Shown piece by piece: positions 9,858-60,861 of a stretch of 64,000 nt of DNA. The stretch is taken from positions 641,037 through 705,036 of the forward strand of contig VXVC01000004.1 of assembly GCA_009836625.1 (NCBI GenBank), read 5' to 3'. Under the pieces are notes generated by a model, which worked only from the letters and a program-made list of their open reading frames with translations, had not been told where the DNA came from and did not search any database. The first letter of the stretch is position 1. Each line of letters starts with the position of its first letter. This stretch comes from Holophagales bacterium (GTDB lineage Bacteria > Acidobacteriota > Thermoanaerobaculia > Multivoradales > Multivoraceae). A program made the position numbers and the translations under genes.

Positions 9858-11639
9858 GTGACGATGCCGCCGACACCCCGCGCGCTCGTCACGGTCCTGA
9901 TCAGTACGGTCGGAGTCCTCAACTGCGCCGGAGAGCCACGGATCAACCGCGTCGCGGAACCAGTGACTTCGGGAAGCCCGTCGCGCCCGACCGAACCCGT
10001 CGCCTTTGACGACCGAGCCGCCGAGGTCGGTCTCGCCTTCCAGCACCGGAACGGCGGCCGCGGCCGCTACCTGCTGCCCGAGATCATGGGCTCGGGCGCG
10101 GCGCTCTTCGACGCCGACGGCGACGGCGATCTCGACGCCTACCTGGTCCAGGGAGGCGAGCTGGAGCCGGGCGCCGGCGCGGCCGGGTCCCCCGCCCGTG
10201 ACCGCCTGTTTCGCAACGACCTTCTCGAAACCGGCGAACTACGCTTCGTCGACGCGACCGAGGACTCCGGCCTCTCGTCGACCGGCTACGGCATGGGCGT
10301 CGCCGCCGGGGACTTCGACGGAGACGGCCGGGTCGATCTCTACGTGACCAACCTGGGCCCCAACCGGCTCTGGCGGAACGTCGGCAACGGCCGCTTCGAG
10401 GACGTGACGGAGGTCGCCGAAGCGGACGATCCCAGGTGGAGCGTTCCGGCCGCCTTCTTCGACTACGACGGCGACGACATGCTCGACCTGTTCGTCGCCA
10501 ACTACGTCGACTTCAACCTCGGCAGCCACACGCTCTGCACCTTCGGCAGCGGCGAGCCGGACTACTGCAGCCCGAAGACCTACCGCGCCGAGCCGGACCG
10601 CCTGTTCCGCAACCTCGGCGACGGACGGTTCGAGCAGACGACGGACCGCGCCGGCCTCGCCACACAGTTCGGCAACGGCCTCGGTGCGGTGCCGGCCGAC
10701 CTCGACCTCGACGGCAGGCTCGATCTCTACGTCGCCAACGACGGCACACCAAATCAGATGTGGATGAACCGCGGTGGCGGCCGCTTCGAGAACCGGGCCC
10801 TGTTCGGCGGCTCGGCGGTCAATCGCCGCGGCGAGGCCGAGGCGGGCATGGGTGTCGACGCCGGTGACCTGGACGGGGACGGCGACGAGGATCTCTACGT
10901 GACCCACATCACGGGAGAGACGAGCACCCTCTACCTGAACGACGGCGACGGCCTGTTCACCGATGCCGGCTTGCCCGCCGGCCTTGATGTGCCCAGCCTG
11001 CCGATGACCGGCTTCGGCACTGGCTGGTTCGATTTCGACAACGACGGCGACCTCGACCTGCTGGCGGTGAACGGCGCCGTGCGGCGCCTGGACCGCGCCC
11101 GCTCAGGCGACGCGGCAGCCGCGCGCGCGGCCGCAGGCAGCGACCACGAACGCCGCTTCGGTCAACCGAACCAGCTCTTCCGCAACCTGGGCGACGGCCG
11201 CTTCGAAGACGCGTCCTCGCTCGGAGGACCGGCCTTCGCGGCCTATGAGGTCTCCCGTGGAGCCGCCTTCGGCGACGTCGACAACGACGGAGACACCGAC
11301 GTTCTCATCACGAACAACAACGGACCGGCGCGGCTGCTGCTCAATCTGATCGGCCAGGACAGCGGCTGGATCGGCCTCCGTCTGGTCACTTCGGACGGCA
11401 AGCGGGACGCCGTCGGAAGCCTGGCCCGGGTGCGACTCACCGACGGCCGCACGATCACGCGCCGGGTCCGCGCGGCGATGAGCTACGCCTCGTCAAGCGA
11501 TCCGAGGGTGCTTATCGGGCTCGGGTTCGCGGAAGTCGAAGACATCCGCGTCGACTGGCGCGGCGGCGCCGGAGAGTCCTTCGGCGCGCTGTCGCCGCAC
11601 GCCTACCATGAAGTCCGCCAGGGAGAGAGCCGACAATGA
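9858..11639 (+). CDS. CRTAC1-family protein (FG-GAP/VCBS repeats + C-terminal ASPIC/UnbV domain), lipoprotein
   Basis: Repeated FDxDGDGxxDLYVxN calcium-binding beta-propeller motifs (FDADGDGDLDAYL, GDFDGDGRVDLYVTN, DLDLDGRLDLYVAND, FDFDNDGDLDLLAVNG), a C-terminal UnbV-like segment and an N-terminal lipobox (LNCAG). A GTG start is assumed. Confidence 0.75.
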   Translation: MTMPPTPRALVTVLISTVGVLNCAGEPRINRVAEPVTSGSPSRPTEPVAFDDRAAEVGLAFQHRNGGRGRYLLPEIMGSGAALFDADGDGDLDAYLVQGGELEPGAGAAGSPARDRLFRNDLLETGELRFVDATEDSGLSSTGYGMGVAAGDFDGDGRVDLYVTNLGPNRLWRNVGNGRFEDVTEVAEADDPRWSVPAAFFDYDGDDMLDLFVANYVDFNLGSHTLCTFGSGEPDYCSPKTYRAEPDRLFRNLGDGRFEQTTDRAGLATQFGNGLGAVPADLDLDGRLDLYVANDGTPNQMWMNRGGGRFENRALFGGSAVNRRGEAEAGMGVDAGDLDGDGDEDLYVTHITGETSTLYLNDGDGLFTDAGLPAGLDVPSLPMTGFGTGWFDFDNDGDLDLLAVNGAVRRLDRARSGDAAAARAAAGSDHERRFGQPNQLFRNLGDGRFEDASSLGGPAFAAYEVSRGAAFGDVDNDGDTDVLITNNNGPARLLLNLIGQDSGWIGLRLVTSDGKRDAVGSLARVRLTDGRTITRRVRAAMSYASSSDPRVLIGLGFAEVEDIRVDWRGGAGESFGALSPHAYHEVRQGESRQ

Positions 11640-13372
11640 ACCGTCGCTGGTTTGCGGGCGCTCTGCTCGCCCTCCTCGCGTGCGGCGCCGCCGAGCGCCT
11701 GCCGCTCCCTTCCCGCTACGAGGCCCACGATCCGGCGGTCCGCGGCCAGATCGGCAGCCTGGAGCGCCGGGTTCGCTCGCTCGAGGACGCCGGCACAGCC
11801 GGCCCAGAGCTGGCGGCCGCGGTCGGCGAACTCGGCAAGCTCTACCACGGCGTGCAACTGCTGGACAGCCACGCCTTCACCGCGCTTGAGGCGGCCGAAG
11901 CCTGCTACCGGGAAGCGCGGCGACTTGACCCATCCGACCATCGCTGGCCCTACCTACACGGTTTCGCCGAGGACGCCCGTGGCGACCACGATGCGGCGGC
12001 GGACTCGTACCGCGCAGCACTGGCGATCGAACCCGACCTCGTGCCTGCGATCCACCGCCTCGCCCAATCGGAGGTTGAGCGCGGCCGGCCCGACGAAGCG
12101 GCCGCGCTGTGGAACCGTGCGCTGGCACTGCAGCCCGAGTTCCCGCCCGCCCTCTACGGGCTGGGAACGCTCGCTCTGGAGCGCGGCGACACGGAGAGCG
12201 CGACCGACTACCTCGAGCGCGCAGTCGCCGCCGAACCGGGAGCCGGCCGCGGACACTACTCCCTCGCCATGGCCTGGCGCCGCCTCGGCGATGAAGACCG
12301 TGCGGCCCGGCACTTCGCGCAGGCAAGCCACACCGACTTCCCGTTCGACGACCCTCTGGTCCGGGAACTCGCCTACCTGCCGACCGGCAGCGCCGCCCTG
12401 GTCCAACAAGGCCTGATTGCGGTACAGGCCGGCGAGTTCGGCGCGGCGGCGACCGTCTTCAGCCGTGCGATCGAGGCGGATCCAACGAACCTCGAGGCGC
12501 GCAAGCACCAGGCGCTGGCGCACGTCGACGCTGGGCAGTTCGAGCAGGCCGAAGCCGCCTACGAAGAACTCCTGGCGCTCGACCCCGACCAGGCGCATGC
12601 GCACTTCGAGTTCGCTCAACTCCTGGCCAACCGCGGCCAGACGACCGAGGCGATCAGGCACCTGACCCGGGCGGCCGAGCTGGCTCCCGACTACAAGCAG
12701 GCGCACTACCAGCTCGCACTCCTCCTCGACCGAGCGGCCCGTCCCGCAGAAGCGCTGGAGCACTACGACCGTGTACTGGCGCTCGACCCCGACTACGCCG
12801 AGGCCAGGACGCGGCGCGCCACCGCGCTCGCATCGTCGGGACGGCCGGCGGAAGCGCTTGAGATCCTGCGCACCCGAGTCGCCAACGCTCCCGGGGACGC
12901 CGCCGCCGTGCAGGCGCTAGGCGTCGTGCTCCGGCAGCAGAACCGGCTGGGAGAAGCTCGAATCGCCCTGGAGAGGAGTCTCGGCTCCGCACAATTCACT
13001 GCCGACGACGAAGCCAGGTTGCGCACCGAACTCGGTGGCATCCTGGCCATCGAAGGACGTCTGACGGACGCAGCCCGTGAACTCCGAACGGCTCAGCAGC
13101 TCAATCCGACCGACCCGCAAACCAGCTTCGTCCTCGGCATGGTCCTCCTCGACTTGCGCCGCCCCGAGGAGGCCGCTCGCGCCTTCGCCGCCGCCCTCGC
13201 CGTCCGTCCCGACCTCACATTGGCGCGCCTTCGCCTGGCCGCCATCCTGGCTCAGACCGACCGCTGCGAGGAAGCCCTGGCCCTTCTCGACGATGGCCGC
13301 CGCTTCGCCGCGAACGATCCGGTCTTCGTCCAGGCATCGCGGCAACTGCGCGCCGCGTGCGCGAACGGCTAG
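11636..13372 (+). CDS. TPR-repeat lipoprotein
   Basis: Signal peptide plus lipobox (LLACG). The remainder is degenerate 34-aa TPR repeats (A..Y..AL.L.P....A...LG...). The ATG overlaps the stop of the upstream CRTAC1 gene (ATGA). Confidence 0.75.
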   Translation: MNRRWFAGALLALLACGAAERLPLPSRYEAHDPAVRGQIGSLERRVRSLEDAGTAGPELAAAVGELGKLYHGVQLLDSHAFTALEAAEACYREARRLDPSDHRWPYLHGFAEDARGDHDAAADSYRAALAIEPDLVPAIHRLAQSEVERGRPDEAAALWNRALALQPEFPPALYGLGTLALERGDTESATDYLERAVAAEPGAGRGHYSLAMAWRRLGDEDRAARHFAQASHTDFPFDDPLVRELAYLPTGSAALVQQGLIAVQAGEFGAAATVFSRAIEADPTNLEARKHQALAHVDAGQFEQAEAAYEELLALDPDQAHAHFEFAQLLANRGQTTEAIRHLTRAAELAPDYKQAHYQLALLLDRAARPAEALEHYDRVLALDPDYAEARTRRATALASSGRPAEALEILRTRVANAPGDAAAVQALGVVLRQQNRLGEARIALERSLGSAQFTADDEARLRTELGGILAIEGRLTDAARELRTAQQLNPTDPQTSFVLGMVLLDLRRPEEAARAFAAALAVRPDLTLARLRLAAILAQTDRCEEALALLDDGRRFAANDPVFVQASRQLRAACANG

Positions 13373-47101: not shown

Positions 47102-48304
47102 TCAGAGTTCGGCGGCGACCGGCGAACCGTCGCTCAGGCTGTCGCTCGGATAGACCACGACCTGCTCGCCGGGTTCGAGGCCGCCGAGAACCTGGGCTTC
47201 CTGCGCGTTCCGCTCACCGACCTCGATCGTCCGGAGGGCGGCCCGGCCGCGCTCGACCGCGAAGACCGCCCAGTTCTCGTCGCGCCGGAAGAGCGCACCC
47301 GTCGGCGCCTTCAGTTCGTCCCCGCTCTCCCAGACGACGACCCGGGTTTCAACCCGGAATCCGTCGCCGAGACCGGCCCAGACAGCAGGCGGATCGACGA
47401 TGTCGATGACCACGTTCACGCGCTGCTCCTCGACGCCGAGCGCCGAGATCTTCGTGAAGCCCGAGGGTTCCACCCGCCGCAACCGGCCCAGCAACGGGCG
47501 GTCGCCGCCCCAGCGATCGATCAGCACGCGCTGACCCGACCGCATCCGGACGGCGTCCTTCGACAGATAGTCCGTGACCACCTCGATCTGCGCCGGATCG
47601 CCAACTTCGAGCAGGGCTTCGCCGGCCGGCACGACGGACTCGCTTTCGCGCACGCGACGCAGCACGACGCCCGAAACGGGCGACACGATCCGGATCGTCG
47701 CCCCATTCAGGTCGTCCGCGCTCTCGGCGCTGAACTGCAGCAGACGGACCCGCGCCGCCTGCAACTCGCTGCGGGCCGTGCGCACCGCGTACTCCGCCGC
47801 TTCCAGCGCTTCCTGCCGGGTGTCGAGGTCGAGCTGGGCACTTTCCATCGTCTCGACCGAAACGATTCCCTCCTGGCTGAGCCGCAGGTAGCGCCCCGCC
47901 TCCGAGCGCGAGTAGACGAGTTCAGCCGCCGCGCGCTCGTAGTGCGCCTCGGCCTGACCGAGCGCGGCGGTCGCGGTCTGCACCACCGCCTCCGCCTCGG
48001 CTCGGCTACGGGCGTCGAGGAGCACCGGGGCCGAGGGCAGGAAGACCGCGAGCACCGTCTCGCCCGCGACCACCGCGTCGCCGGGCTCGAGTTCGATCCG
48101 CAGGACCCGGCCGGCGAGCGGCGCCGAGATGACGAACCGATCCCGGACCCTCGTCTCGCCCTCGTCGTCGACGGTCACCTGGAGCGGACCTCGCGCCACC
48201 TCGGCCAGTTCCGCCGCGACCGGCTGCGGGCGCGTGCCGAGGATCACGGCGGCCGCCGCCACAACCAGCCCCACGCCCCACAACACCCAGCGCCGCGTCT
48301 TCAT
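47102..48304 (-). CDS. Efflux transporter periplasmic adaptor (membrane-fusion protein, HlyD/MacA-like)
   Basis: N-terminal TM anchor, coiled-coil hairpin (Ala/Glu/Arg-rich 140-220) and barrel-sandwich and beta-barrel domains. Last gene of the minus-strand array. Confidence 0.8.
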   Translation of the reverse strand: MKTRRWVLWGVGLVVAAAAVILGTRPQPVAAELAEVARGPLQVTVDDEGETRVRDRFVISAPLAGRVLRIELEPGDAVVAGETVLAVFLPSAPVLLDARSRAEAEAVVQTATAALGQAEAHYERAAAELVYSRSEAGRYLRLSQEGIVSVETMESAQLDLDTRQEALEAAEYAVRTARSELQAARVRLLQFSAESADDLNGATIRIVSPVSGVVLRRVRESESVVPAGEALLEVGDPAQIEVVTDYLSKDAVRMRSGQRVLIDRWGGDRPLLGRLRRVEPSGFTKISALGVEEQRVNVVIDIVDPPAVWAGLGDGFRVETRVVVWESGDELKAPTGALFRRDENWAVFAVERGRAALRTIEVGERNAQEAQVLGGLEPGEQVVVYPSDSLSDGSPVAAEL

Positions 48305-48319
48305 CGTCTTCCTTCTCTC

Positions 48320-50689
48320 CTACTCGCGGGTCTTGAGCACCGCGACGAGATCGAGATCATGGAGCTTACGCCGCACCGTCCAGGCCGAGATGGCCATCGA
48401 CCCGAGAACGGTCGCGGCGGAAACCAGGAACGTGCTCGGCTCGACCACCACCGGCAGCCGAAACAGCTCGCTCTCGAAGACGCTCATCACGCCGGTGATC
48501 ATGGCGAAGCCGAGGAGCAGACCAAGCGGAATCGAGGCCAGAGTGAGAATCCCGAGTTCGCCCAGCAGGATCGAGGAGATCTCGCCGCGAGTGAAGCCGA
48601 TCACACGCAGGCTGGCGAGTTCGCGGCTGGTCTCGGACAGCGAGATCCGGGCCGTGTTGTAGATCACCCCGAAGGCGATGATCACCGCGAAGAGCAGGTT
48701 GACGTTCATCATCATGGCCATGTTGTCGAGCATGTAGGTCCGGATGCTCTGGAGCGCGGCACTGCGCAGCGTCGCCCCCGCCACCGCCGGCATCGCCTTC
48801 AGCAGACCGTACAGCCGTTCCTCGGCCAGCGTGTCGATCTTGAGCATCGCCCCGGTGATCGTGTCGTCGCGCCGCACCAGCCGACGGAGCGACTCCTGCT
48901 CCATGTACGCCGTCACGCCGAGCAGGTCGTCGACGGTGTCGGTCAGCACGACCTCGCGCACCGGCCTGGAGTCCTCCATGATCTCGACCACCAGCGTGTC
49001 CCCCGGCTCGACCCGCAGTTGCTCCGCCAGCAACGTGGACAGGACGAGACCCGGCCGGTCGAGCCGGATGGCGCGGTAGTCGAGATCGACCACGCGCCGC
49101 AACCTGGCGTCCGGCGCCAGCGCCTGGATCGCGGTCTGCTTCTGCAGGTGGCCGTTGCGCAACCGCGCCGCGACACCGTTCGTCGGCTCCACCTGGAGCA
49201 CGCCGGAGAGAGCCGCGAGTTCATGGACCGCCCTCCGTTCGACCGGTTCGAAGAAGCTCACCGACAGGTCCTGGCGCTGGACGATGTTGAACTGCACCTC
49301 CAGCAGTTCGTCCATCGAGTCGATCATCGCCCAGCCCACGACCATGATCGCGCCGGCGAAGGCGATGCCGACGATCGACAGGCCTGCGCGTACCGGGCGT
49401 CGCGACAGGTTGCGAAGCACCATCCGCGCCGGCTGCGACAGCCATCGCCGCACGCCCAGCCGTTCGAACAGGGACACCCGGAAAGTCTCGGGCGCCGCCG
49501 GGCGCATCGCTTCGGCGGGCGGCAGCGAGACGACGCTGCGCACCGCGCCCAGCGCGCCAACCGTCGCGGCGGCCAGGCTCACTCCGACGGCGATCAGAAT
49601 GCTCGACGCCGACACGTCGTAGATCAGGAACGGGAACCGGAAGTACTCCATGTAGAGACCGAGCATCGCTTCGGCCAGCAACAGGCCGGCGCCTATCCCG
49701 AGCAGGGTGCCGAAGGCCACCACGACGATGGCCCACTGCACGTAGTGGACACCGAGCCGGAGGTTCGAGTAGCCGAGAGCCTTGAGCGCCGCGATCTGTT
49801 CGCGCTGTACCGCGACCGTTCGCCGCAGAACCACGTTGAGCAGGAACGTGGCCACGGCGAGGAAGATCATGGGGACGAGGAGTCCCATGTTCTCGAGCTG
49901 GGACAACTCGTTCTGGAGGTACCAGTTCGAGGTCTGGTCGGCACGCGGAATCGCGCCCAGGCCCCCGTACGGATCAAGAATCGCGTCGAGTTCGACGATC
50001 ACCGCGCGCTCGAGGCTGGGCGAGCGGTCGACCAGCGTCAGGGCGACGTCGTTGAACCCACCCTCCATCTCGAACGCGGTGGCCAGATGCCGGCGGGTCA
50101 TCCACAGAAAGCCGAAGTGCTTCGGATCCGGGACCAATTCTCCCGGCCCGATGCCGTAGACGAACTCCGGGCTGAGCCCGACACCGACGATCTCCAGTGG
50201 CTGCCGGCGACCGTTGATGACAGCGAACAGGCGATCGCCCAGGTCGAGGCCGTGAGCCTCGGCGAAACGCTCGCCGACGAGGGCCTCCTCCGCCCGGTCC
50301 GGTTCCGGGAACCGCCCGCGGCGCAGCGCAACGTCGTTGAGCGCCGGCCGGCCGCGATCCGGCAGGGAGATCAGGCGTCCGTTGACCGGATCGGTGACTC
50401 CGGGCACGTCCAGCGAGACGCTCACAACCACCCGGGTCTGGACCTGCTTGACTCCCGGGATCGCCGCGATGCGCTCCTCGACCCAGTTGGGGACGCGCTT
50501 GGCGCCGGCGAACACGTCGGCGAAGGCGTAGCGGGTGTAGTAGGCGTCGCGGGTGGTCAGGAGCGAGCCGAACACTCCCTGCGCCATGACCAGCAGCGCG
50601 ATCCCCGACGAGACGACCAGCGCGATCGCCAGTACCTGGGACCGGACGTTCCAGAGGTCGCGCAGGAGTTTGCGGTCGAGGGCTTTCAT
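48320..50689 (-). CDS. ABC transporter permease with duplicated FtsX domains (MacB-like; ADOP-type, Acidobacterial duplicated orphan permease), 789 aa
   Basis: Two repeats each built of a TM helix, a large periplasmic domain and a 3-TM FtsX bundle. N-terminal [13 protein letters not shown] is typical. No fused ATPase. Confidence 0.8.
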
Positions 50690-50693
50690 CCTC

Positions 50694-51430
<737 letters not shown>

Positions 51431-51434
<4 letters not shown>

Positions 51435-53587
51435 GGCAGCTCGATGTCGGGGGGCGCCGCCGACAGCTCGACGATCATCTCCGTGAACTCGCCCGGCACC
51501 GTATCGACCCGGATCATGCCGCCGTGCTCGCGCACGATGTCGGCCGAGAGCGCCAGACCGAGGCCCGTGCCCTGGTCGGTCGGCTTGGTCGTGAAGAAGG
51601 GGTTGAAGATCTTGTCCACGATGTCCTGCGGGATTCCGTCGCCGTTGTCGCGGATCCGGACCTCGACGCCGTCGTCCATCCTTCGCGTCGTCACGGTGAG
51701 CGTCGGCTCGTAGGACTCATCGTCCGTCGTGAGCCGCTTTTCGTTCGTGGCGTAGCAGGCGTTGCCGACCAGGTTGAGGAACACGCGACCGACGTCCTGG
51801 GACACGACCTCCAGGGTGCCCAGGTCCGGATCGAAGTCCTTCTCGATGGTCAGGTTGAACTCCGAGTCGGAAGCTCGGGCGCTGTGGTAGGCGAGCCCGA
51901 TGTGCTCGTCGACCAGGCGGTTGATGTCGGCCTGTTCACGGCCAGCCGCGCCCCGGCCCATCTTCAGCATGTCGGTGACGATCCGGTTGGCCCGCTCGCC
52001 GTGGTTCTGGATCAGCTTCAGGTTCCCGCTCAGGTCCTCGAAGATCTCCCCGATTTCCTCCCGCTGGTCCTCGTTCAGGCTGCCGTCCTCGTTCTCCTTC
52101 ATGATCTCGTCGACCTCTTCGAGGAGTTCCGAGGACACCTCGGAGAAGTTCTTGACGAAGTTGAGAGGGTTCTTGATCTCGTGGGCGACGCCGGCCGTGA
52201 GCTCGCCCAGCGCCGCGAGCTTCTCGCGCATCACGATCTGGTCCTGGGCCTTCTGCAGATCGGCCAGCACGACCTCCAGCTCGTCGTTCTTCTCCTTCAG
52301 TTCGTCCGCTAGCTTCTCGACCAGGTTCAGTCGCTGCACTTCCAGCGCGTGACGGCGGAAGACCTCGAGGGCAGCCGCCATGTCCGCGACCTCGTCCTGG
52401 CCGCCGATGCCGATTTCGGCTTCCAGGTTGCCCTCCGCCATCTCCCGCATGCTGCTCGAAAGCGCCTCGAACCGGCGCACCAGCAGCCGTCCGACGAACA
52501 GCCAACCGATGAAGACCGCTCCGGCGATGCTCAGCACGTTGAGCGCCAGGAGCAGCGCCCGGCCGGTTCTGATGGCCTGGGACGCGGCGTCGGTCGCGGC
52601 ATCGGTACGTGCCTGCGAAGCGGCGACCAGACTCTCGACGTCGCCACCGAGTTCGACGGCCAGGTTCTGGTTCTCCTCCAGCAGCGCCTGCTGCCGGTCG
52701 AGCACGTCGACCTCTTGTCGCCTCAGGTCGAAGGCGGTACGACTCTTCGCCAGCATCTCGCCGAAGAGCGCTTCCAACCGGTCAGAGGTCGCGGTTTCGT
52801 CGATCGCGCTGAGGGCGCGCTCGATACTCGTCGCCGCCGACTCGTACCGCTCCTCGACCGGCTCGATCAGCGGCCGGTCGGTCAGCACCGCCAGACTCTT
52901 CAGGAGCTGATCGATGATCGTGACGTCCTGCTGAAGGCCGACCAGCACGCGGTAGCGGTCGATCTCCGGTTCAGAGAAGTGGACCTCACGGGACGCAGGG
53001 GCAAGCTCGAACGAGCGAAAGCCGGTCATGGCGTAGAACAGTTGGTTGTCGAGAGCAGGCACCAGGAGCACCTCGATCCGGCTGTGGAGCGACTCCAGTT
53101 CCGACCGCAGCGCCTCGCTCTCCGCGCCCAGTTCAAAGCCCTCCGCAACCGACTCCTGGATTGCCGCGATGTTGCCGATGAGCTCTCCGCCACGCGCCTG
53201 GATGCTCACGATCTCCGCGTCGCCGCCAAGGGACTCCTCGGACCCCATTCCCCTGCTCATCAGGTCCTCGAGTTCGCGCTCGAAGGCCCGTTGCGCGGGC
53301 GCCATCTCGACGACCGCCCGAGTCAACTCGTCCTGGTTCGCCGTCGCGGTCAGCCTGGGGCCCGCCGCCACCAGCGTTCCGCTGCCCTGGGCGACGCCGA
53401 AGGCGGCCGCGAGTTCAGGCACCGTTCCCTGGGTGACCCGGTTCTGCGAGTCGCCGACCTGAGCGAAGGCGAACAACGCCACGAGGCTGGCCGCGAGCGT
53501 CAGGGCGGCGGCGCCGCCGATGCCAACGTAGAGCTGCGTGGCGATCCTGAAGCGGGCCTCGGCCAGTCGTCGAAACCACGAGATCAT
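51431..53587 (-). CDS. Sensor histidine kinase with ~260-aa periplasmic domain, HAMP and HisKA/HATPase
   Basis: TM1 ([27 protein letters not shown]), a periplasmic region, then TM2 + HAMP. H-box [22 protein letters not shown], and N/G boxes at the C-terminus (GTGLGLALS). The real start is internal to the six-frame ORF 51431-54034, and the ATG overlaps the SBP stop (ATGA). Confidence 0.85.
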
Positions 53588-54828
53588 TGCTTCACCGCCG
53601 CCTCGAGACGCGTCGCTGGCCGATACCGACCCCGTTCGTCGATCACGGTCAGGAACACGGCGTCCGAACCCTGGTTGTCCCCGTCGCCGAACACGAGGCG
53701 GAAGCCGTTCAGGTCGATCGATCCGGCGTCGCGCAGAGTCTGAATGAAGCGGTCCCGATCGACCGCCGTCCCGCTGCGTTCGAGGGCCTCGATCACCAGA
53801 CGTCCGGCGAGGTAGCCCTCGAACGAGACGAAACCGGGCTCGGCCCCTGGGGTGTGGGCGCGCAGCGCGCGCCGGTAGGCGGTGGCGACCCTCGAGTTCC
53901 GCGCGCTCGGAAACGGCACGACCTGGGTGACGTAGACGCCGGCGCCGCGTGGGCCGAGTTCTTCCGCGAGGGCATTGCTGCCCACGAAGGACAGGGTCAT
54001 GAACACGGGATCCAGGCCGATGTGCCGGGCCCACGCGATCAGGCTCGCCACCGGTTGGTAGGCCCCCACGATGATGACGGCCTCGGGCCGCCCCACCTCG
54101 ATGTCGACGATGGCCGTCTTGACGGCGGTCGTGTTGCGCGGATAGACGCCGATCGCGACCGCCTCCATTCCCCGCCTGTCGAATGCGGCGCGAACGCCCG
54201 CCAGGCCGGCACGCCCGAAGGAATCGTTCTGGATGACCACCGCGATCCGCTCGATGCCCAGATCCCTCGTCAGTCGCTCCACCATCTCCTCCGTCTCCTG
54301 GGCGTAGGAGGCGCGGAGGTTGATCACATGCGGCTCGCTGCGGAGAAAGCCCGCGCCCGTGAACGGAGCGATGTACGGCACACCCGCCTCTTCGGCCACC
54401 GGCACCGCGGAGCGGGAGGTCGGCGTACCGACGCCGCCGACCAGCGCGAACACACCCTCGTCCTCGATCAGGCGGCGCGTGTTCGTGATCGCGGCCTCCG
54501 GCTCATAGCCGTCGTCCACCGTGACGAGTTCCAGGCGCCGGCCATGCACGCCGCCGGCATCGTTGGCCTCCTTGAACGCCGCCTGGATGCCGAGCCGCAT
54601 CCCTCTGCCCAGTTCGGCAGCCGGACCACTGAAGGCGGCGGACTGTCCGAACAGGATGCGCTCGGCCGAAACGCCCGGCGTCCCTTCCGGCCCGGTCGGC
54701 GGTGCCGCCGGCTGAGCCGCCAAAGGCGCCGCGGCGAGCAACGCCGCCGCGGCCCAGGCTGACGCCGTCAGAGCTATCTGAGCAGCATGTGCGCGCATCG
54801 CGACCGGCAGTCCCGTGCCGCGGTTCAA
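53584..54828 (-). CDS. Periplasmic substrate-binding protein, type I PBP (LivK/branched-chain-amino-acid-binding-like)
   Basis: Signal peptide. PBP1 blocks (ILFGQSAAFSGPAAELGRGMRLGIQAAF, VFALVGGVGTPTS). No cognate permease or ATPase of the Liv type is nearby; it is instead translationally coupled to the histidine kinase. The start is 54828 (ATGA overlap with the upstream gene) or 54798. Confidence 0.75.
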   Translation of the reverse strand: MNRGTGLPVAMRAHAAQIALTASAWAAAALLAAAPLAAQPAAPPTGPEGTPGVSAERILFGQSAAFSGPAAELGRGMRLGIQAAFKEANDAGGVHGRRLELVTVDDGYEPEAAITNTRRLIEDEGVFALVGGVGTPTSRSAVPVAEEAGVPYIAPFTGAGFLRSEPHVINLRASYAQETEEMVERLTRDLGIERIAVVIQNDSFGRAGLAGVRAAFDRRGMEAVAIGVYPRNTTAVKTAIVDIEVGRPEAVIIVGAYQPVASLIAWARHIGLDPVFMTLSFVGSNALAEELGPRGAGVYVTQVVPFPSARNSRVATAYRRALRAHTPGAEPGFVSFEGYLAGRLVIEALERSGTAVDRDRFIQTLRDAGSIDLNGFRLVFGDGDNQGSDAVFLTVIDERGRYRPATRLEAAVKQ

Positions 54829-55244
54829 CTCCGGCGCTTGACCATTGACACGTGGTTGCGGCCGCCCTCGCGGCTGTACGAAGTCTCGTCCATGAGGACC
54901 TTCACGAAGTGGACCCCCAGGCCGCCGATCTGCCGGTCCTGAACTTCCGCATCGAGGTCCGGCTCGGGAGCCTCGTGGAACGGATCGAACGCCTTCCCGC
55001 TGTCGCGAACCTCGATCCGGACCTCGTCGTCGCTCGATGTGACCTCGATCTCGATCTCGCTGCTGCCGGGCTCACCGCCGCCGTGACGCACGACGTTCGT
55101 CGCCACTTCCTCCAGACCGAGAACGATGGCGTAGGTCACATCCTGCGGCCAACCCTCCTCCCGGCCAAGCGCCTCGACGGCCTCCGAGACGCCAGGAAGC
55201 TCTTCGATCCGGTTCGGAACACGGAGGTGGAGGTTGGCGCTCAC
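54825..55244 (-). CDS. RsbW/SpoIIAB-like anti-sigma-factor serine kinase (GHKL ATPase), ~139 aa
   Basis: HATPase_c boxes: EEVATNVVRHGG (N box), VRDSGKAFDP and GGLGVHFV (G boxes). The GTG start overlaps the stop of the upstream RR-PP2C gene (GTGA). Only the C-terminal 139 aa of the six-frame ORF 54825-55883 are real. Confidence 0.75.
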   Translation of the reverse strand: MSANLHLRVPNRIEELPGVSEAVEALGREEGWPQDVTYAIVLGLEEVATNVVRHGGGEPGSSEIEIEVTSSDDEVRIEVRDSGKAFDPFHEAPEPDLDAEVQDRQIGGLGVHFVKVLMDETSYSREGGRNHVSMVKRRS

Positions 55245-56425
55245 TCGTCGGCGATGCGCAAGGTCATGCAAGTCAGATCGTCGAACTGCGGCGCTTCGCC
55301 GGCAAAGTCCTGCACGGCCTGCAGGATCATCTCGGCGGCTTCCCGGGCAGTTGGAGTCCGACCGTCGCCGAACAGACCCTGAAGCGACTCGAGGCCGAAC
55401 TCCTCGTTCGACACGTTGATCGCCTCGGTGACTCCGTCCGTGAAGAAGACGACGAGGTCTCCCGGGCTCAGTCGGACGCTGGCCTGCCCGTACTCGAAGC
55501 CGGGAATCGCCCCGAGGGCGAGGCCGCCCGTCAGTTCGAGTTCCTCCGAGCTCCCGTCGGGGTGGACCACCAGCGGAGGGTTGTGGCCGCCGTTGGAGAA
55601 GGTGAGCAGCCTGGTCGAGGGATCGTAGACGCCGTAGAAGACGGTGACGAACATCGCCGCGTCGTTCGTCTCGTTCAGCAGGTCGTTCACTTCGCGGAGG
55701 ACCGCCCCGGGATCCTCGACGCCGACTGCCGCGCCCTTGAGCAGCGTGCGGCTCGACATCATGAACAGGGCCGCCGGCACGCCCTTGTCCGACACGTCGG
55801 CTACCGCGAGCCCGATCCGCCCCGCATCGAGGTTGATCACGTCGAAGAAGTCCCCCCCGACGTTGCGTGCCGCGTGCATGCAACCGTAGACCTCACACCC
55901 GTCCACATGGGGGAACTTGTCCGGCAGGATGGACTGCTGGATCTTCGTCGCCACATCGAGCTCGTTCTGTATCGCCACCAGCTTGTCGCGCGAGGCGAGC
56001 GCGGCGCGCCACTCGTCGAGATGTCGCAACGTCCGCTCGATCGTGACCTCGAGGTCGGTGAAGTCGATCGGCTTGGTGACGAAGTCGAAGGCGCCGCGGT
56101 TCATGGCGGTGCGGATGTTCTCCATGTCGCCGTAGGCAGAAACGATGACCGAGCGGAGGTCCGTGTTCACCTCCGGGATCTGCTGCAGCAGGGTCAGGCC
56201 GTCCATCTTCGGCATATTGATGTCCGAGAGAACGATGTCGATGTCCTTCTTCTCCGTCAGGACCTCGAGCGCCTCGACGCCGTTGCCGGCGAACTCGAAA
56301 CCGTACTTGCCTCGGCGGATGTGGCGCCGCATGCGCTGGCGAACCAGCCGCTCCAGATCCGGCTCGTCGTCGACAACCAGGATCTTGTAGTCGGGTCTGT
56401 CCCGATCGCCCACCTGGACCGCCAC
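55241..56425 (-). CDS. Response-regulator receiver fused to PP2C/SpoIIE-type serine phosphatase (RsbU-like)
   Basis: Receiver domain: KILVVDDE, phospho-acceptor in IVLSDINMPKMDG, and TKP. PP2C domain: GGDFFDV, ADVSDKGVPAALFM, FTDGVTEA. GTG start. Confidence 0.85.
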   Translation of the reverse strand: MAVQVGDRDRPDYKILVVDDEPDLERLVRQRMRRHIRRGKYGFEFAGNGVEALEVLTEKKDIDIVLSDINMPKMDGLTLLQQIPEVNTDLRSVIVSAYGDMENIRTAMNRGAFDFVTKPIDFTDLEVTIERTLRHLDEWRAALASRDKLVAIQNELDVATKIQQSILPDKFPHVDGCEVYGCMHAARNVGGDFFDVINLDAGRIGLAVADVSDKGVPAALFMMSSRTLLKGAAVGVEDPGAVLREVNDLLNETNDAAMFVTVFYGVYDPSTRLLTFSNGGHNPPLVVHPDGSSEELELTGGLALGAIPGFEYGQASVRLSPGDLVVFFTDGVTEAINVSNEEFGLESLQGLFGDGRTPTAREAAEMILQAVQDFAGEAPQFDDLTCMTLRIADE

Positions 56426-56446: not shown

Positions 56447-56782
56447 CTACCCCGCCGCAGCCAGGGCGTCGGCCTGCGTGTCGTAGATCTGGATGATGCG
56501 GTTGAAGCCGCTGATCTCGAACACCGACTGGACGGGATCACTCAACGCGCAGAGAGAGATGCTCACGTTGCGCTGGCCGAGGGTCTTTGCGACCAGCAGG
56601 ACGACCCTCAGGCCGGCGCTGCTGATGTACGCGAGCTGGCCGAGGTCGACGACCACCGCCTGGACGTCCTCGCCGATCGCCCCCTGCAACTGGCGTTCAA
56701 AGTCCTGGGAGTTCGAGCTGTCGACGCGCCCCTCGACTTTGGCCACAAGAACCTTGTCGTGATGATCCACCTGGACGTTCAT
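56447..56782 (-). CDS. STAS-domain anti-sigma-factor antagonist (RsbV/SpoIIAA-like)
   Basis: 111 aa with the conserved phosphorylatable Ser context LAYISSAGLRVVL. The ATG overlaps the transglutaminase stop (ATGA). Confidence 0.8.
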   Translation of the reverse strand: MNVQVDHHDKVLVAKVEGRVDSSNSQDFERQLQGAIGEDVQAVVVDLGQLAYISSAGLRVVLLVAKTLGQRNVSISLCALSDPVQSVFEISGFNRIIQIYDTQADALAAAG

Positions 56783-57687
56783 ACTCTCTGCCTCCCGTTG
56801 CCGTTTCTTCCGCTAAGTCGTGCGCTGTCAACTGCATTCACTATCACATCAACCGCGATTTTCGCATCCCCGGCGCCCTGGAACACCCCCCTTGTTGGAG
56901 AAACGTCGGCATAGTCCCTGCCCGCGGCCACGCGGATGTGTCGCTGATCGCTGAACGTCGTGTTCGTTGGGTCGAAGCCGACCCAGCCGGCCCCCGGAAG
57001 CCAGCATTCTACCCAAGCGTGACTGGCGCCCGCCGTCACGCGTTCGCCGGCTCGTCCCGTGTTGTGGAGATAACCCGACACGTAGCGGGAGGGGACGCCC
57101 CAGGAGCGGCCGATGGCGATCATCAGGTGGGCATAGTCCTGGCACACGCCCCGACCCGATTCCAGCAGGTGCTCGATGGGCGAATCGGCCGCCGTGCTGC
57201 CCGGCTCGTACTCGAAGCGCTCGCGGATCCCGTCGGCCAGGCGGACCAGGCTCTCCATCGGACGTTCCTCCGGACGGAAGCCCTCGCTGCGGACGAAGCG
57301 CTCTAGCGCCAGGGACGGCCGCGCGAGCGCGCTGGGTTCGAGGAAGTGCCAGTACTCCGGCAATTGGCGCAGGCTCCGCAACTCCTCCCAGCCGCCGACC
57401 GCTTCCACGCTCGACGTCGCGGCGAGCTCCGCCCTGAACCGGGACGTGATCACGAGTTCCTCGTGCCGCCGATGGACGTTGAGAACGTGGCGGCGGTTGC
57501 CGAAGCAGTCCCGCTCCGGACTGAGGGAGGCGGCCGGGATCGTCTCGATCTCGAATCGCCGCACCCTCTGGCCCGATGTCCGGGCCGGCCGCAGGCAGAG
57601 CAGCAGAACGCAGCCGCGGACGCTGTCCGAGTACGCGTATCTCGTCCGATGCTCGACGTCGTAACGGAGCCGGCGGGTAGACGTCAC
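56779..57687 (-). CDS. Transglutaminase-like family protein (N-terminal Bact_transglu_N + TGc core)
   Basis: N-terminal LRYDVEHRTRYAYS (typical start of the transglutaminase N domain). Catalytic Cys in GRGVCQDYAHLMIAIGRSWGVPSRYVSGY, with downstream His (SHAWVECW) and Asp (GFDPTN). GTG start assumed, overlapping the alpha-E stop (GTGA). The six-frame ORF 56779-58374 is a frame artefact upstream of the start. Confidence 0.75.
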   Translation of the reverse strand: MTSTRRLRYDVEHRTRYAYSDSVRGCVLLLCLRPARTSGQRVRRFEIETIPAASLSPERDCFGNRRHVLNVHRRHEELVITSRFRAELAATSSVEAVGGWEELRSLRQLPEYWHFLEPSALARPSLALERFVRSEGFRPEERPMESLVRLADGIRERFEYEPGSTAADSPIEHLLESGRGVCQDYAHLMIAIGRSWGVPSRYVSGYLHNTGRAGERVTAGASHAWVECWLPGAGWVGFDPTNTTFSDQRHIRVAAGRDYADVSPTRGVFQGAGDAKIAVDVIVNAVDSARLSGRNGNGRQRV

Positions 57688-58646
57688 CGCAGCGGAGAAT
57701 CCTCGATCGCGTAGTCGACGAAGGCGCCGAGCACGGCGTCGTGCAGATCGCGGGCGGATCGATCGACCCGTTCCAGCAGTTCCTCGGGCGCTGAAGCTTC
57801 CGGCCAGTCGTAGAGGATGAGCGCTTCGGCCCGACCGGCCAACCGCCGGGCAGCGGCGTCGGCTTCGACGCCCGGCCCCCCGCCGAGGCCCCCGAGTTCC
57901 GTCGCCGCGGCCTGCACCGTGGCGAGCACGGATCCCGGCAGGGACGGATCGGCGACCAGCAGATCCAGCACCCGGTCCGGCTTCATCTCGATCCCGTGGA
58001 CGCGGCCGTAGGCCTCCAGAGCGTGGTGGGTGCGCAGCATGCTCGCCCAGCCAAGGGTTCGCCGCTCCGTCTGCCGACTCAGGTCGATCTGAGCCAGCAG
58101 CAGGGGCACCGCGAGCTGCGCTCGCTCGATGGCGCGGCCGAGGCGCATGAACCGCCAGGCAGCGCCGCGGTACATCGTCGCGTCCGCGACGCCGACGAAG
58201 TTGTGGATCTCGCTGCGGGTCTGTGCGTAGAAGACCTCCGGCGTCCTCCAGATGTCGACGGCCTCGAGATCCCGAATCCGCAGCCAGGCGGCGTTCAGGC
58301 AGGTCCACATCTCGCCGCTGATGCAATGACGCATCTGGCGGGCGTTCTCGCGCCCGCTCGCTATGGCGCTCCACACCGAATCAGGGTTCGAACGCTCGAA
58401 GGTCAGGTCGTCCGCCAGGGTGAAGGAGTCCGCCAGGGCGAACTCGTCCGCCTCCGGCAGGAACTGCTCGCCCGGTGGCGGCAACCGCTTCATGCAACGG
58501 TAGATCCGTTTCCAGCCGAAGTGGATCTCCTCGACCGAACGGTCGACCAGAAACTGCACCTGCAACTCCAGCAGGCGGCTCAGATAGCCGGCCCTGGCCA
58601 GGTACCGGGCCATCCAGTAGACGCCCTGGGCGCTGCGCGCGAGCAT
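57684..58646 (-). CDS. Alpha-E domain protein (DUF403)
   Basis: 320-aa all-helical protein beginning MLARSAQGVYWMARYLARAGYLSRLLE (canonical alpha-E N-terminus). Always found 3' of a circularly permuted ATP-grasp gene. The start codon shares 1 nt with the ATP-grasp stop. Confidence 0.75.
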   Translation of the reverse strand: MLARSAQGVYWMARYLARAGYLSRLLELQVQFLVDRSVEEIHFGWKRIYRCMKRLPPPGEQFLPEADEFALADSFTLADDLTFERSNPDSVWSAIASGRENARQMRHCISGEMWTCLNAAWLRIRDLEAVDIWRTPEVFYAQTRSEIHNFVGVADATMYRGAAWRFMRLGRAIERAQLAVPLLLAQIDLSRQTERRTLGWASMLRTHHALEAYGRVHGIEMKPDRVLDLLVADPSLPGSVLATVQAAATELGGLGGGPGVEADAAARRLAGRAEALILYDWPEASAPEELLERVDRSARDLHDAVLGAFVDYAIEDSPLR

Positions 58647-60088
58647 CAGAGGTCGACCACCCAGAGGTCCTTGCCGCCGCCGCCCTGGCTCGAATTCACG
58701 ACCAGGCTGCCCCTTCGCAGGGCGACCCGGCAGAACGCCCCGGGTACGATGCGGGTCTCGTTCCCGGTCAGCACGAAGGGCCGGAGATCGACGTGGCGCG
58801 GCTCCGCGTGGCCGTCGATCAGGCAGGGCGACCGCGACAGCGCCAGGGTGGGCTGCGAAATGAAGTCCGCGGGATCGGCCTGGAGCGTCTTCGCGTACTC
58901 GTCCCGCTCTTCCGGCGTCGAGTGCGGACCGACCAGCATGCCGTAGCCACCCGACTCGCCGACCCGCTTGACCACCAGGCGCTCCAGGTTGTCCAGCGTG
59001 TACTCGAGATCCTCCGGCCGCCGGCAGAGGCGGGTGTCGACGTTCTGGAGCAGGGGCTCCTCGCCCAGGTAGTAGCGCACCATGTCGGGCACGTAGGCGT
59101 AGACGCTCTTGTCGTCGGCCACGCCCGTTCCCGGAGCGTTGGCCAGGGCCACGTTGCCGCGCTTGAACGCGTTCATCAGGCCCGGAACGCCCAGCAAGGA
59201 GTCCTCGCGGAAGACGAGCGGGTCGAGGAAATCGTCGTCCACGCGTCGGTAGATCACGTCGACGCGCCGGAGGCCGGAAGTCGTCCGCATGTAGACGAAC
59301 CCGTCGTTGACCAGCAGGTCCTGCCCTTCGACGAGTTCGGCGCCGATCTCGTGAGCCAGGAACATGTGCTCGTAGAACGCCGAGTTGTAGGTGCCGGGAG
59401 TGAGCAAAGCCAGGCACGGATCCGGGCGGCCGCCGGGCGACAGCTCGCAGAGGGTCTGCCGCAACAGGCTGCCGTACTGCTCGACGTCCTGAACCCGGGA
59501 ACGCCGGTAGAGCCGGCGAAGGCCGGCCTTCACCGCCTTGCGATTCGCGATCATGTACGACACGCCCGAGGGCACGCGCAGGTTGTCCTCCAGCACCATG
59601 AAGCCCTCGTGCGTACGGACGATGTCCGTGCCGCAGATCGTCACCCAGACATCATTGGGCACATTGACTCCGCGCATCGCCAGCCGGTACTGCGGGCAGC
59701 CGAGGATGACGTCGGCGGGAATCACGCCGTCCCTGACGACGCGGCAGTCGCCGTAGACGTCGGCGAGGAACAGGTTGAGCGTCCGGATCCGCTGCACCAG
59801 ACCGGCTTCGAGTTCCCGCCACTCCGCCAGGGCGAGCAGGCGCGGCACGCAGTCGATCGGGATGATCCGTTCCTCCGCCTCCTCGTCGCCGTAGACGGTG
59901 AAGGTGATCCCCTCCTGGGAGAACGAGCGCGTCACCCGTTCCTGGATCGTGTTCAGGTCGTCGTCGGGCAGTTCCCTGAGCGCCTCGACGACCGCCCGGC
60001 AGTGATCGCGAGGCTCTCCCTCCCCGACGAACATCTCGTCGTAGATCGCAGGATCGAAGTCGTAGAGGCTGAAGTCCACCGGACCCAC
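58646..60088 (-). CDS. Circularly permuted type-2 ATP-grasp protein
   Basis: 480 aa with conserved CP-ATP-grasp blocks (GITFTVYG, RIIPIDCVPR, GTYNSAFYEHMFLAHEIGAELVEG, YRRVDDDFLDP, VALANAPGTGVADDKSVYAYVPDMV). GTG start; first gene of the array. Confidence 0.8.
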   Translation of the reverse strand: MGPVDFSLYDFDPAIYDEMFVGEGEPRDHCRAVVEALRELPDDDLNTIQERVTRSFSQEGITFTVYGDEEAEERIIPIDCVPRLLALAEWRELEAGLVQRIRTLNLFLADVYGDCRVVRDGVIPADVILGCPQYRLAMRGVNVPNDVWVTICGTDIVRTHEGFMVLEDNLRVPSGVSYMIANRKAVKAGLRRLYRRSRVQDVEQYGSLLRQTLCELSPGGRPDPCLALLTPGTYNSAFYEHMFLAHEIGAELVEGQDLLVNDGFVYMRTTSGLRRVDVIYRRVDDDFLDPLVFREDSLLGVPGLMNAFKRGNVALANAPGTGVADDKSVYAYVPDMVRYYLGEEPLLQNVDTRLCRRPEDLEYTLDNLERLVVKRVGESGGYGMLVGPHSTPEERDEYAKTLQADPADFISQPTLALSRSPCLIDGHAEPRHVDLRPFVLTGNETRIVPGAFCRVALRRGSLVVNSSQGGGGKDLWVVDL

Positions 60089-60285
60089 TCGAGCGGTTTG
60101 CCGAACGGGCGTATCCTACAGGTACAGAAAGAGTAAGCCCTCCTGCCGAAGGTTGCGGGCAGACTGGGGCGACCGGCCGCTTGGACGCCGCGGCCCTCCG
60201 CCCCGTATCATCCTGTAAGCCGCCGGCGAAGCGCCCCCCAAGACCCGCCGCGGTCGGACCTCAATTCACATCAAGGAGCACGAAG
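60089..60285. promoter_or_regulatory. Divergent promoter region between the 11-gene minus-strand array and the pilin-like gene
   Basis: This is the only sizeable non-coding gap flanking the array. It contains a locally AT-richer stretch (ACAGGTACAGAAAGAGTAAG) and RBS AAGGAG 8 nt before the pilin-like ATG. No -35/-10 could be assigned with confidence. Confidence 0.4.
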
Positions 60286-60861
60286 ATGACCGGAGCGCGC
60301 TCCCACAGCCGGCAAGCCGGCTTCACCCTGATCGAACTCCTGATCGTCGTGGCGATCATCGGCATCATCTCCGCGCTGCTGGTGCCGAACCTGATGACCG
60401 GGCTGCAGAACGCCAACCAGACCCGTACCCAGGCCGACATGAAGGCCGTGGGCTCCGCCTGGATGCAGTGGCTGACCGACCAGGTCAGCGCCGCCGCCGC
60501 CGGCTCGAGCACGACCGCCACGTTCAGTTGGAGCGAGTTCACCTATCCCGACTTCTCCCACGCGGACCTCTCCGCCCTGCTCCGTCCGTCGAACACGTTC
60601 TTCTACCTGCAGGACGTGCCCGAACGAGACGGCTGGAACAACCCCTACCGGTTCGGCTTCGCCGGTTCGGACCAGCTGCTCGGCACCCAGGTCATCGGCA
60701 TCTGGAGCGGCGGGCGCGACGGCTCGAACACCGAGCAGCCGCAATCCACCTACGAGATCGGCGCGTTCCGCGGTACCGACTTCAACGAGGACCTGGTCTG
60801 GGCCGATGGCTACTGGGTGCGCTGGCCGGGCAGCGCCGCGGAAGCCGGCACGGACGAGTAG
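60286..60861 (+). CDS. Prepilin-type N-terminal cleavage/methylation domain protein (type IV pilin / T2SS pseudopilin-like), orphan
   Basis: Leader MTGARSHSRQAG followed by FTLIELLIVVAIIGIISALLVP (class III signal peptide with Glu at +5). No pilus or secretion ATPase genes are nearby. Confidence 0.75.
   Translation: MTGARSHSRQAGFTLIELLIVVAIIGIISALLVPNLMTGLQNANQTRTQADMKAVGSAWMQWLTDQVSAAAAGSSTTATFSWSEFTYPDFSHADLSALLRPSNTFFYLQDVPERDGWNNPYRFGFAGSDQLLGTQVIGIWSGGRDGSNTEQPQSTYEIGAFRGTDFNEDLVWADGYWVRWPGSAAEAGTDE

Follow-up and report, generated by a model that had tools for sequence, protein, structure and literature searches.

The window analysed here, a stretch of 64,000 nucleotides (nt) from a Holophagales bacterium (GCA_009836625.1, contig VXVC01000004.1, positions 641,037-705,036, forward strand; G+C 66-72%), carries on its minus strand a cluster of 11 co-directional genes. 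Three of them encode a circularly permuted ATP-grasp protein, an alpha-E protein and a transglutaminase-like enzyme (together, the triad); the others encode a STAS protein, a receiver-PP2C phosphatase, an RsbW-like kinase, a periplasmic binding protein, a histidine kinase and a MacB-type exporter. Taken singly, the enzymes are ordinary triad members without the Anbu peptidase, and the signalling genes are an ordinary receiver-PP2C partner switch without a sigma factor. What is new is the conserved union of the triad with a partner switch and an ammonium transporter across phyla.

Genes of the cluster

A sequence-only reading of this DNA had described the triad as coupled to a STAS antagonist and its partner switch. 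The coupling was borne out and proved larger than stated, since the 11-gene cluster includes a full sensory chain. The enzyme and signalling genes are as follows.

58646..60088, minus strand: circularly permuted ATP-grasp amide ligase; open reading frame of 480 amino acids (aa); Pfam CP_ATPgrasp_2, E=1e-152
57684..58646, minus strand: alpha-E protein, 320 aa; Pfam Alpha-E, E=2e-58
56779..57687, minus strand: transglutaminase-like cysteine enzyme, 302 aa; Bact_transglu_N, 5e-21, and Transglut_core, 5e-27
56447..56782, minus strand: single-domain STAS protein of the anti-sigma-antagonist type, 111 aa; Pfam STAS, 2e-20
55241..56425, minus strand: receiver plus PP2C (SpoIIE-type) phosphatase, 394 aa; Response_reg, 8e-25, and SpoIIE, 2e-51
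54825..55244, minus strand: RsbW-like serine kinase/anti-sigma-type protein, 139 aa; HATPase_c_2, 1e-27; gene overlaps the phosphatase gene as GTGA
53584..54828, minus strand: LivJ/UrtA-like periplasmic binding protein with signal peptide; Peripla_BP_6, 4e-65
51431..53587, minus strand: membrane histidine kinase, 718 aa, with a TorS-like periplasmic sensor, HAMP, HisKA and HATPase domains (Pfam)

The Pfam matches in these rows uphold the three enzyme domain assignments made earlier; no NCBIfam model matched any triad protein at E<=1e-5. Comparison with relatives indicates that the ATP-grasp protein probably starts at the second GTG (60079), which gives 477 aa. Its residues 16-478 match the structural-genomics protein PDB 3N6X (E=1.6e-160), and the motifs VLEDNxRxPSG, VVKxVxxSGGYGM, RHVDLRPF and VVNSSQGGGxKD are kept in 89 sequences including Anbu-type outgroups, so that the ATP-binding motifs, whose integrity had been proposed as a check, are intact. 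We know of no member of this circularly permuted ATP-grasp family with a known reaction, and the characterised members to which an alignment had been suggested are therefore nonexistent. In the alpha-E protein the ER motif (E174-R175) is conserved among 95 sequences. Its AlphaFold 2 (AF2) model is all-alpha (predicted local distance difference test score, pLDDT, 70.7) and, at that quality, found no fold match in the PDB. The Cys-His-Asp triad predicted for the transglutaminase is likewise intact: Cys182 (GVCQDY), His223 (SHAWVE) and Asp239 (GFDPTN) are invariant in 20 homologues and align with the matching Cys, His and Asp of 3ISR and TgpA 6G49.

The signalling part is, as judged from its domains and motifs, a complete sensory chain of binding protein, histidine kinase, receiver-PP2C phosphatase, STAS protein and RsbW-like kinase. 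The STAS protein scores above the cut-off of TIGR00377, and its motif YISSAG is invariant in 90 sequences; the candidate phospho-serine is Ser55, which we take to correspond to Ser58 of SpoIIAA. Both halves of the phosphatase keep their signature residues in about 100 sequences, namely DD, DINMP and TKP in the receiver and GGDFxD, DVSxKG, TDG and DD, with the metal-binding aspartates, in the PP2C domain. The RsbW-like protein has an invariant N-box (E..N), G1 box (DxGxxFxP) and G2 box (GGLG) in 100 sequences. The binding protein, whose start may be Met11 at 54798, matches the NCBIfam models for branched-chain amino acid and urea binding proteins below their cut-offs. The kinase sensor matches Pfam TorS_sensor_domain at E=2.7e-8 (34.1 bits, cut-off 27), and TIGR02956 covers residues 19-442 at 156 bits (cut-off 676). 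HAMP, HisKA and HATPase_c are the only kinase domains beside the sensor.

The genes are tightly packed. The ATP-grasp TGA (58648-58646) and the alpha-E ATG (58646-58644) share one base (TGATG), the alpha-E TGA (57686-57684) overlaps the transglutaminase GTG (57687-57685) as GTGA, and the transglutaminase TGA overlaps the STAS ATG as ATGA (56782-56779). Read directly from the sequence, these junctions are as the sequence-only reading had given them. A gap of 21 nt separates the STAS and receiver-PP2C genes, the histidine-kinase gene overlaps the binding-protein gene as ATGA, and overlapping junctions run along eight genes of the cluster. Overlaps of one and four bases are common in compact high-GC operons and are unremarkable in themselves. 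Terminator-like sites within the cluster are no commoner than in shuffled sequence; together with the overlaps this suggests that the cluster is co-transcribed. In two relatives the ATGA between the transglutaminase and STAS genes is replaced by a gap of 25-30 nt with the same ribosome-binding site, so the C-terminal tail of the window's transglutaminase is read-through of that site and not functional.

Triad and module across phyla

Two reciprocal sets of loci were compared. On the triad side, a homologue search scored more than 7,000 transglutaminase relatives among 8,000 candidates, from which the best 80 species-representative genome loci were taken (L010-L089). On the module side, a metagenome scan with the kinase sensor domain yielded 80 loci (L094-L173), 32 of them with full flanks; almost all come from LXNI, LXNJ and MKWU assemblies, with a few Joint Genome Institute (JGI) metagenomes, and are taken to be sponge samples. 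Profiles of each window protein, and of the ammonium transporter (Amt) from a relative, were mapped on all loci. The module was defined as the STAS protein, the receiver-PP2C phosphatase, the RsbW-like kinase, the Peripla_BP_6 binding protein and the TorS-like histidine kinase, and was counted as linked when at least three of its five genes lay within 10 kb of the triad locus. Nearest to the window are metagenome-assembled genomes (MAGs) from Thermoanaerobaculia (Acidobacteriota), those of Candidatus Multivorans among them; its transglutaminase is 92% identical to the ones in OZ242353.1 and JAPVWO010000250.1. Judged by record names, the close relatives of both triad and module are nearly all sponge or coral MAGs or metagenomes.

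By this measure the module is linked to the triad in 34 of 80 species-level loci. These represent five phyla (Acidobacteriota 10/15, Chloroflexota 8/27, Gemmatimonadota 11/16, Latescibacterota 4/6, Binatota 1/1) and show at least nine gene orders. The gene order of the window, flanks included, is kept down to 65% transglutaminase identity and marks one syntenic lineage. Elsewhere the arrangement varies. The module lies upstream of the triad in Dehalococcoidia, Latescibacterota and other Acidobacteriota, is divergent in Gemmatimonadota and convergent in Binatia, and is also found downstream; in Vicinamibacteria it is reduced to RsbW and STAS, directly after the transglutaminase gene. Throughout, the module proteins are orthologous across phyla, with identities to the window of 69-79% for the receiver, 61-68% for the binding protein and 44-65% for PP2C, and they diverge in step with the triad. 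In the transglutaminase, similarity goes with habitat and not with phylum, at 55% to Dehalococcoidia and 45% to Vicinamibacteria. The cassette may thus have moved among symbionts, and these comparisons suggest its horizontal spread among sponge symbionts across phyla.

Seen from the module side, the module is usually complete in the sensor-domain loci, and triad genes and Amt are its most frequent neighbours, at 11 and 17 of the 80 loci. Every other family reaches at most 9/80; these neighbours include GCV_T, xanthine/uracil permease, cation efflux and branched-chain amino acid permease genes. Among loci with full flanks the transporter is present in 8/32. We rejected the notion that triad-linked kinases form a single clade, as linked and unlinked modules interleave in the kinase tree. 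Seven linked loci (L117, L120, L121, L122, L128, L130 and L169) combine the module with the ATP-grasp and alpha-E genes and have no transglutaminase gene, of which tblastn at E<=1 found none. The ATP-grasp/alpha-E ligase pair is therefore the linked core.

Two other gene families were sought at these loci. The Anbu-like peptidase that often accompanies the triad, reported absent by the sequence-only reading, was indeed found neither in the 64-kb window nor in 90 related loci at E<=10, in a search of limited sensitivity seeded with one Klebsiella sequence. Searches with RpoE and SigB seeds found no sigma factor gene in the window and one near 3 of about 170 loci.

Nitrogen genes and flanking regions

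An Amt gene is present in 32/80 species loci. The transporter is the marine Amt subtype TIGR03644, above cut-off, and adjoins the ATP-grasp gene in 31 of the 35 triad loci that carry it. In 14 loci it sits between the ATP-grasp and alpha-E genes; examples of Amt inside the triad are L009 (7610-9001), L020, L031, L033-L035, L040, L046, L055, L075, L086, L027 and L093. The ATP-grasp and alpha-E products are fused in some organisms, so the inserted Amt gene separates what is likely an enzyme pair. Fourteen loci, some of which lack a triad, have Amt and STAS genes as immediate same-strand neighbours (L104, L117, L121, L122, L131, L145, L148, L149, L019, L022, L053, L070, L078 and L087), a hint that the transporter may be a target of the STAS protein.

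Further nitrogen-related genes occur nearby. Three loci, with the Binatia-type order, have a type I glutamine synthetase gene flanked by the transglutaminase and Amt genes, and another three have one within 10 kb (L074, 11047-12480; L160, 12206-13675, minus strand; L167, 13730-15166, minus strand; and L061, L062 and L073 at about 1.3-3.6 kb); some of these genes are a few kb upstream of Amt. We do not count glutamine synthetase as a frequent neighbour: a first clustering gave 7 loci, of which a direct search confirmed 6, with 4 among the 80 species loci. Porin-like outer-membrane genes (Porin_O_P, Gcw_chp) flank the Amt-triad block in about 10-15 Gemmatimonadota loci, as at L058 (4708-5778, minus strand, and 10926-11708) and L080 (10875-11579). 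After the triad, some loci have genes for Hydantoinase_B, formamidase/acetamidase and amidohydrolase proteins, which are nitrogen-releasing (L093, 10863-12590 and 15246-16127; L072, 14127-15923).

The region upstream of the ATP-grasp gene was examined by a promoter scan and an alignment of 12 relatives. It comprises the following features.

60089..60282, no strand assigned: divergent intergenic region from the ATP-grasp gene to the pilin-like gene; alignment of 12 relatives
60181-60861, plus strand: pilin-like gene carrying an N_methyl motif, with a likely ATG near 60283; its divergent position relative to the operon is constant in the lineage

Within this region a 45-nt motif at 60178-60224 is conserved down to 69% protein identity. 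We rejected it as the promoter of the triad operon, as the sole consensus match, TGGACG-18-TATCAT at 60182-60211 on the plus strand, reads as a sigma-70-like promoter for the divergent pilin-like gene. Neither a sigma-54 nor a sigma-70 promoter was recognisable upstream of the ATP-grasp gene in the scan and the alignment.

The far end of the cluster carries the exporter, joined to it by overlapping or closely spaced junctions.

47102..51434, minus strand: MacB-type exporter (Pfam), with ABC ATPase 50694-51434, FtsX/MacB permease 48320-50689 and membrane-fusion protein 47102-48304

The exporter is confined to the Candidatus Multivorans-type lineage, being present in all loci with the window's gene order (A-type) and in none of the other gene orders. 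An Rfam scan of the window found no RNA families. Positions 121-35658 look ordinary, with three large CarboxypepD_reg/beta-barrel outer-membrane proteins, FG-GAP/ASPIC and TPR proteins, PSCyt/PSD1 (DUF1549/DUF1553), two VWA proteins and a PQQ dehydrogenase. The G+C content of the first 10 kb of the window is about 4% below that of the next 25 kb.

Known systems and interpretation

The triad has been defined as the core of the Anbu operon and predicted to make or modify peptides (PMC3235984, PMC5666114, PMC6376114). It is also found in genomes without Anbu, the fourth gene being frequent but optional (PMC3235984). Nitrogen recurs in its reported biology: in B. cenocepacia the triad depends on NtrC/sigma-54, and an ntrC mutant shows log2 changes of -6 to -9.4 (PMC5491218); in P. 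putida no operon is more strongly induced by nitrogen limitation (note added in proof, PMC3235984; also PMC6376114); and in marine metagenomes the domains of the triad vary together with urea genes (PMC3597751). The only biochemical datum known to us is that the Yersinia ATP-grasp protein hydrolyses ATP (PMC6376114). Rv2411c, tested in one assay, made no gamma-aminobutyrate (GABA)-trehalose (bioRxiv 10.64898/2026.04.15.718621). In our literature search no study of triad function came to light, and neither a partner-switch nor an Amt context was reported for it, in agreement with the sequence-only reading, to which the former context was unfamiliar.

The window triad has the same three families in the same order as the Anbu operon, or COG2308-COG2307-COG1305 triad (Valas and Bourne 2008; Iyer et al. 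2009), and its ATP-grasp has 52% identity with the Klebsiella counterpart from an Anbu-type operon. The link to nitrogen is a further common point (PMC5491218, PMC3235984). In contrast to that operon, the window lacks the Anbu peptidase and has a partner-switch sensory module, and its relatives also have an ammonium transporter; no NtrC/sigma-54 signature was recognised upstream of the window triad, and some relatives drop the transglutaminase.

Several signalling systems resemble the module. As in TorT-TorS, a binding protein is paired with a kinase, here with a putative TorS-type sensor; in the window the binding-protein gene lies immediately upstream of the kinase gene and overlaps it. The window binding protein, however, is a Peripla_BP_6 (LivJ/UrtA-like) protein and not TorT, the kinase is non-hybrid without receiver or HPt, and the cognate regulator is a phosphatase, not a DNA-binding protein. 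The RsbK-RsbY-RsbV-RsbW-sigmaB pathway of Bacillus cereus, in which a sensor kinase acts on a receiver-PP2C phosphatase and thereby on a STAS antagonist opposed by the RsbW kinase, is identical to the window module in domain composition. It differs in that the window cluster has no sigma gene, its kinase has a TorS-like periplasmic sensor with a binding protein, and the linked genes are enzymes and not sigB. In Anabaena HenR/All4160, V. fischeri SypE/SypA and P. aeruginosa SiaABCD, a PP2C phosphatase and a serine kinase set STAS phosphorylation at a biosynthetic locus. The first two count among the partner switches acting on enzymes or on unknown non-sigma targets (PMC13555669 and PMC8256260, respectively); in Anabaena the target is an enzyme and HenR the phosphatase (PMC13555669). 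Compared with these three, the window has no STAS-enzyme fusion, its input is a binding protein with a histidine kinase, and its output target is putative. Finally, the 14 Amt-STAS adjacencies recall GlnK-AmtB, where the gene for a small signalling protein also lies beside an ammonium-transporter gene, although STAS has no relation to PII proteins, the loci with called, annotated genes have no PII gene next to the transporter, and the window has no Amt.

We tentatively propose, without calling it probable, that the locus works as a single unit in which a nutrient-sensing partner switch, with its output at the protein level, controls an ATP-dependent amide ligase system. The ligase system would consist of the circularly permuted ATP-grasp and the alpha-E protein, with the transglutaminase-fold Cys-His-Asp enzyme as an accessory amidase or transamidase. 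The LivJ/UrtA-like binding protein would report a nitrogen-containing solute to the TorS-like kinase, which would phosphorylate the receiver of the PP2C phosphatase. That phosphatase, opposing the RsbW-like kinase, would set the phosphorylation of STAS Ser55, and unphosphorylated STAS and RsbW would then switch partners, with an output on the co-encoded ATP-grasp/alpha-E enzymes and, where present, the ammonium transporter. The role of such a system would be a response to nitrogen or ammonium supply, and in the window's lineage the switch would replace the NtrC/sigma-54 control of proteobacteria. By context, the Amt, glutamine synthetase and LivJ/UrtA-like binding-protein neighbours would fit induction of the triad under nitrogen limitation.

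Several observations weigh against this proposal. RsbW-type proteins classically bind sigma factors, and one for this RsbW could be encoded elsewhere in the genome. No module lies near 46 of the 80 close triad relatives, and that sample of nearest relatives is biased phylogenetically and ecologically towards sponge and coral metagenomes. Triad genes are found in only 11/80 sensor-domain loci, or 6/32 (about 19%) of those with full flanks; with most copies elsewhere, and linked and unlinked copies interleaved, the module is a general sensory cassette and not a dedicated regulator. Amt is absent from the cluster in the window's own lineage and from the 64 kb. The ATGA overlap with STAS carries little weight because it varies between relatives.

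The strongest competing explanation is a classical RsbU/V/W switch, in which RsbW holds an unlinked sigma factor that transcribes the triad (and Amt) operon and the module resides in the operon for autoregulation, as in the rsbV-rsbW-sigB operon. The STAS, RsbW and PP2C motifs are canonical, RsbW at 139 aa has the usual anti-sigma size, and an alternative sigma factor would fit an operon with no recognisable sigma-70 or sigma-54 consensus promoter upstream; in proteobacteria, moreover, the triad is under transcriptional control (PMC5491218). Against this, a sigma gene accompanies so few of the loci, and a trans-acting regulator would have little reason to be re-linked to its targets in nine gene orders, or to be reduced to RsbW and STAS beside the enzymes. 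We regard an unlinked sigma factor as possible, if doubtful, and favour an output at the protein level because no sigma gene is linked, because the minimal attachment is RsbW plus STAS, and because a trans regulator needs no repeated re-linking. The same linkage bears on the simpler view that triad and module are independent, both abundant in sponge-symbiont genomes, and were joined by operon compaction and island transfer without specific coupling. Most module copies do lie away from triads beside varied genes, the kinase tree does not separate linked from unlinked modules, the ATGA overlap is not strictly conserved, and the cross-phylum similarity suggests island transfer. At a few copies per 3-6 Mb genome, however, adjacency within 10 kb would be expected by chance in about 1% of cases (copy number estimated), compared with 43% on the triad side and 19% on the module side in a sample biased to related sponge symbionts, so that a chance association is unlikely. 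The linkage also survives many rearrangements, and triad genes and Amt exceed every other family as module neighbours. We accordingly consider the absence of coupling unlikely.

Two further readings concern the substrate. The signalling proteins STAS or RsbW might themselves be modified, the ligase attaching amino acids or an amide much as RimK or tubulin-tyrosine ligase does and the transglutaminase-fold enzyme removing them, so that the switch would gain another level of covalent control. Protein tagging or modification was put forward earlier as the work of the triad (Iyer et al. 2009, in the summaries of PMC6376114 and PMC5666114), and STAS is the gene translationally coupled to the transglutaminase gene in the window. 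Yet most bacterial triads, such as the Klebsiella and Hymenobacter loci, have no STAS neighbour, the STAS C-terminus is not conserved among 90 sequences, and seven linked loci have no transglutaminase, which leaves this reading highly improbable. A second idea, to which we also give little credence, is that the ATP-grasp/alpha-E pair works at the cytoplasmic face of Amt. There it would amidate a carboxylate, which may be protein-bound or an alpha-E glutamate, with incoming ammonia at the expense of ATP; the transglutaminase-fold enzyme would reverse or pass on the amide, and STAS/RsbW would gate the process as GlnK does for AmtB. If true, this would give the cell a way, beside glutamine synthetase, to capture or sense ammonium, and the chemistry of the Anbu operon would be an ammonia ligase cycle.

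The triad is widespread and is among the most strongly nitrogen-regulated gene sets in pseudomonads and Burkholderia. To our knowledge, no substrate or product has been found for it since its description in 2008-2009. Its conserved linkage to Amt, and to a phospho-switch that includes a nutrient-binding sensor, restricts where to look and points to ammonium or an amide as reactant, while nominating STAS and RsbW as candidate direct interaction partners and the ATP-grasp/alpha-E pair as the minimal unit. The module also becomes a candidate for the few partner switches that act on enzymes rather than on sigma factors, and the cassette has apparently moved from phylum to phylum among sponge symbionts. 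The union with signalling makes the chemistry and control of the triad testable and provides a new handle on the function of its enzymes.

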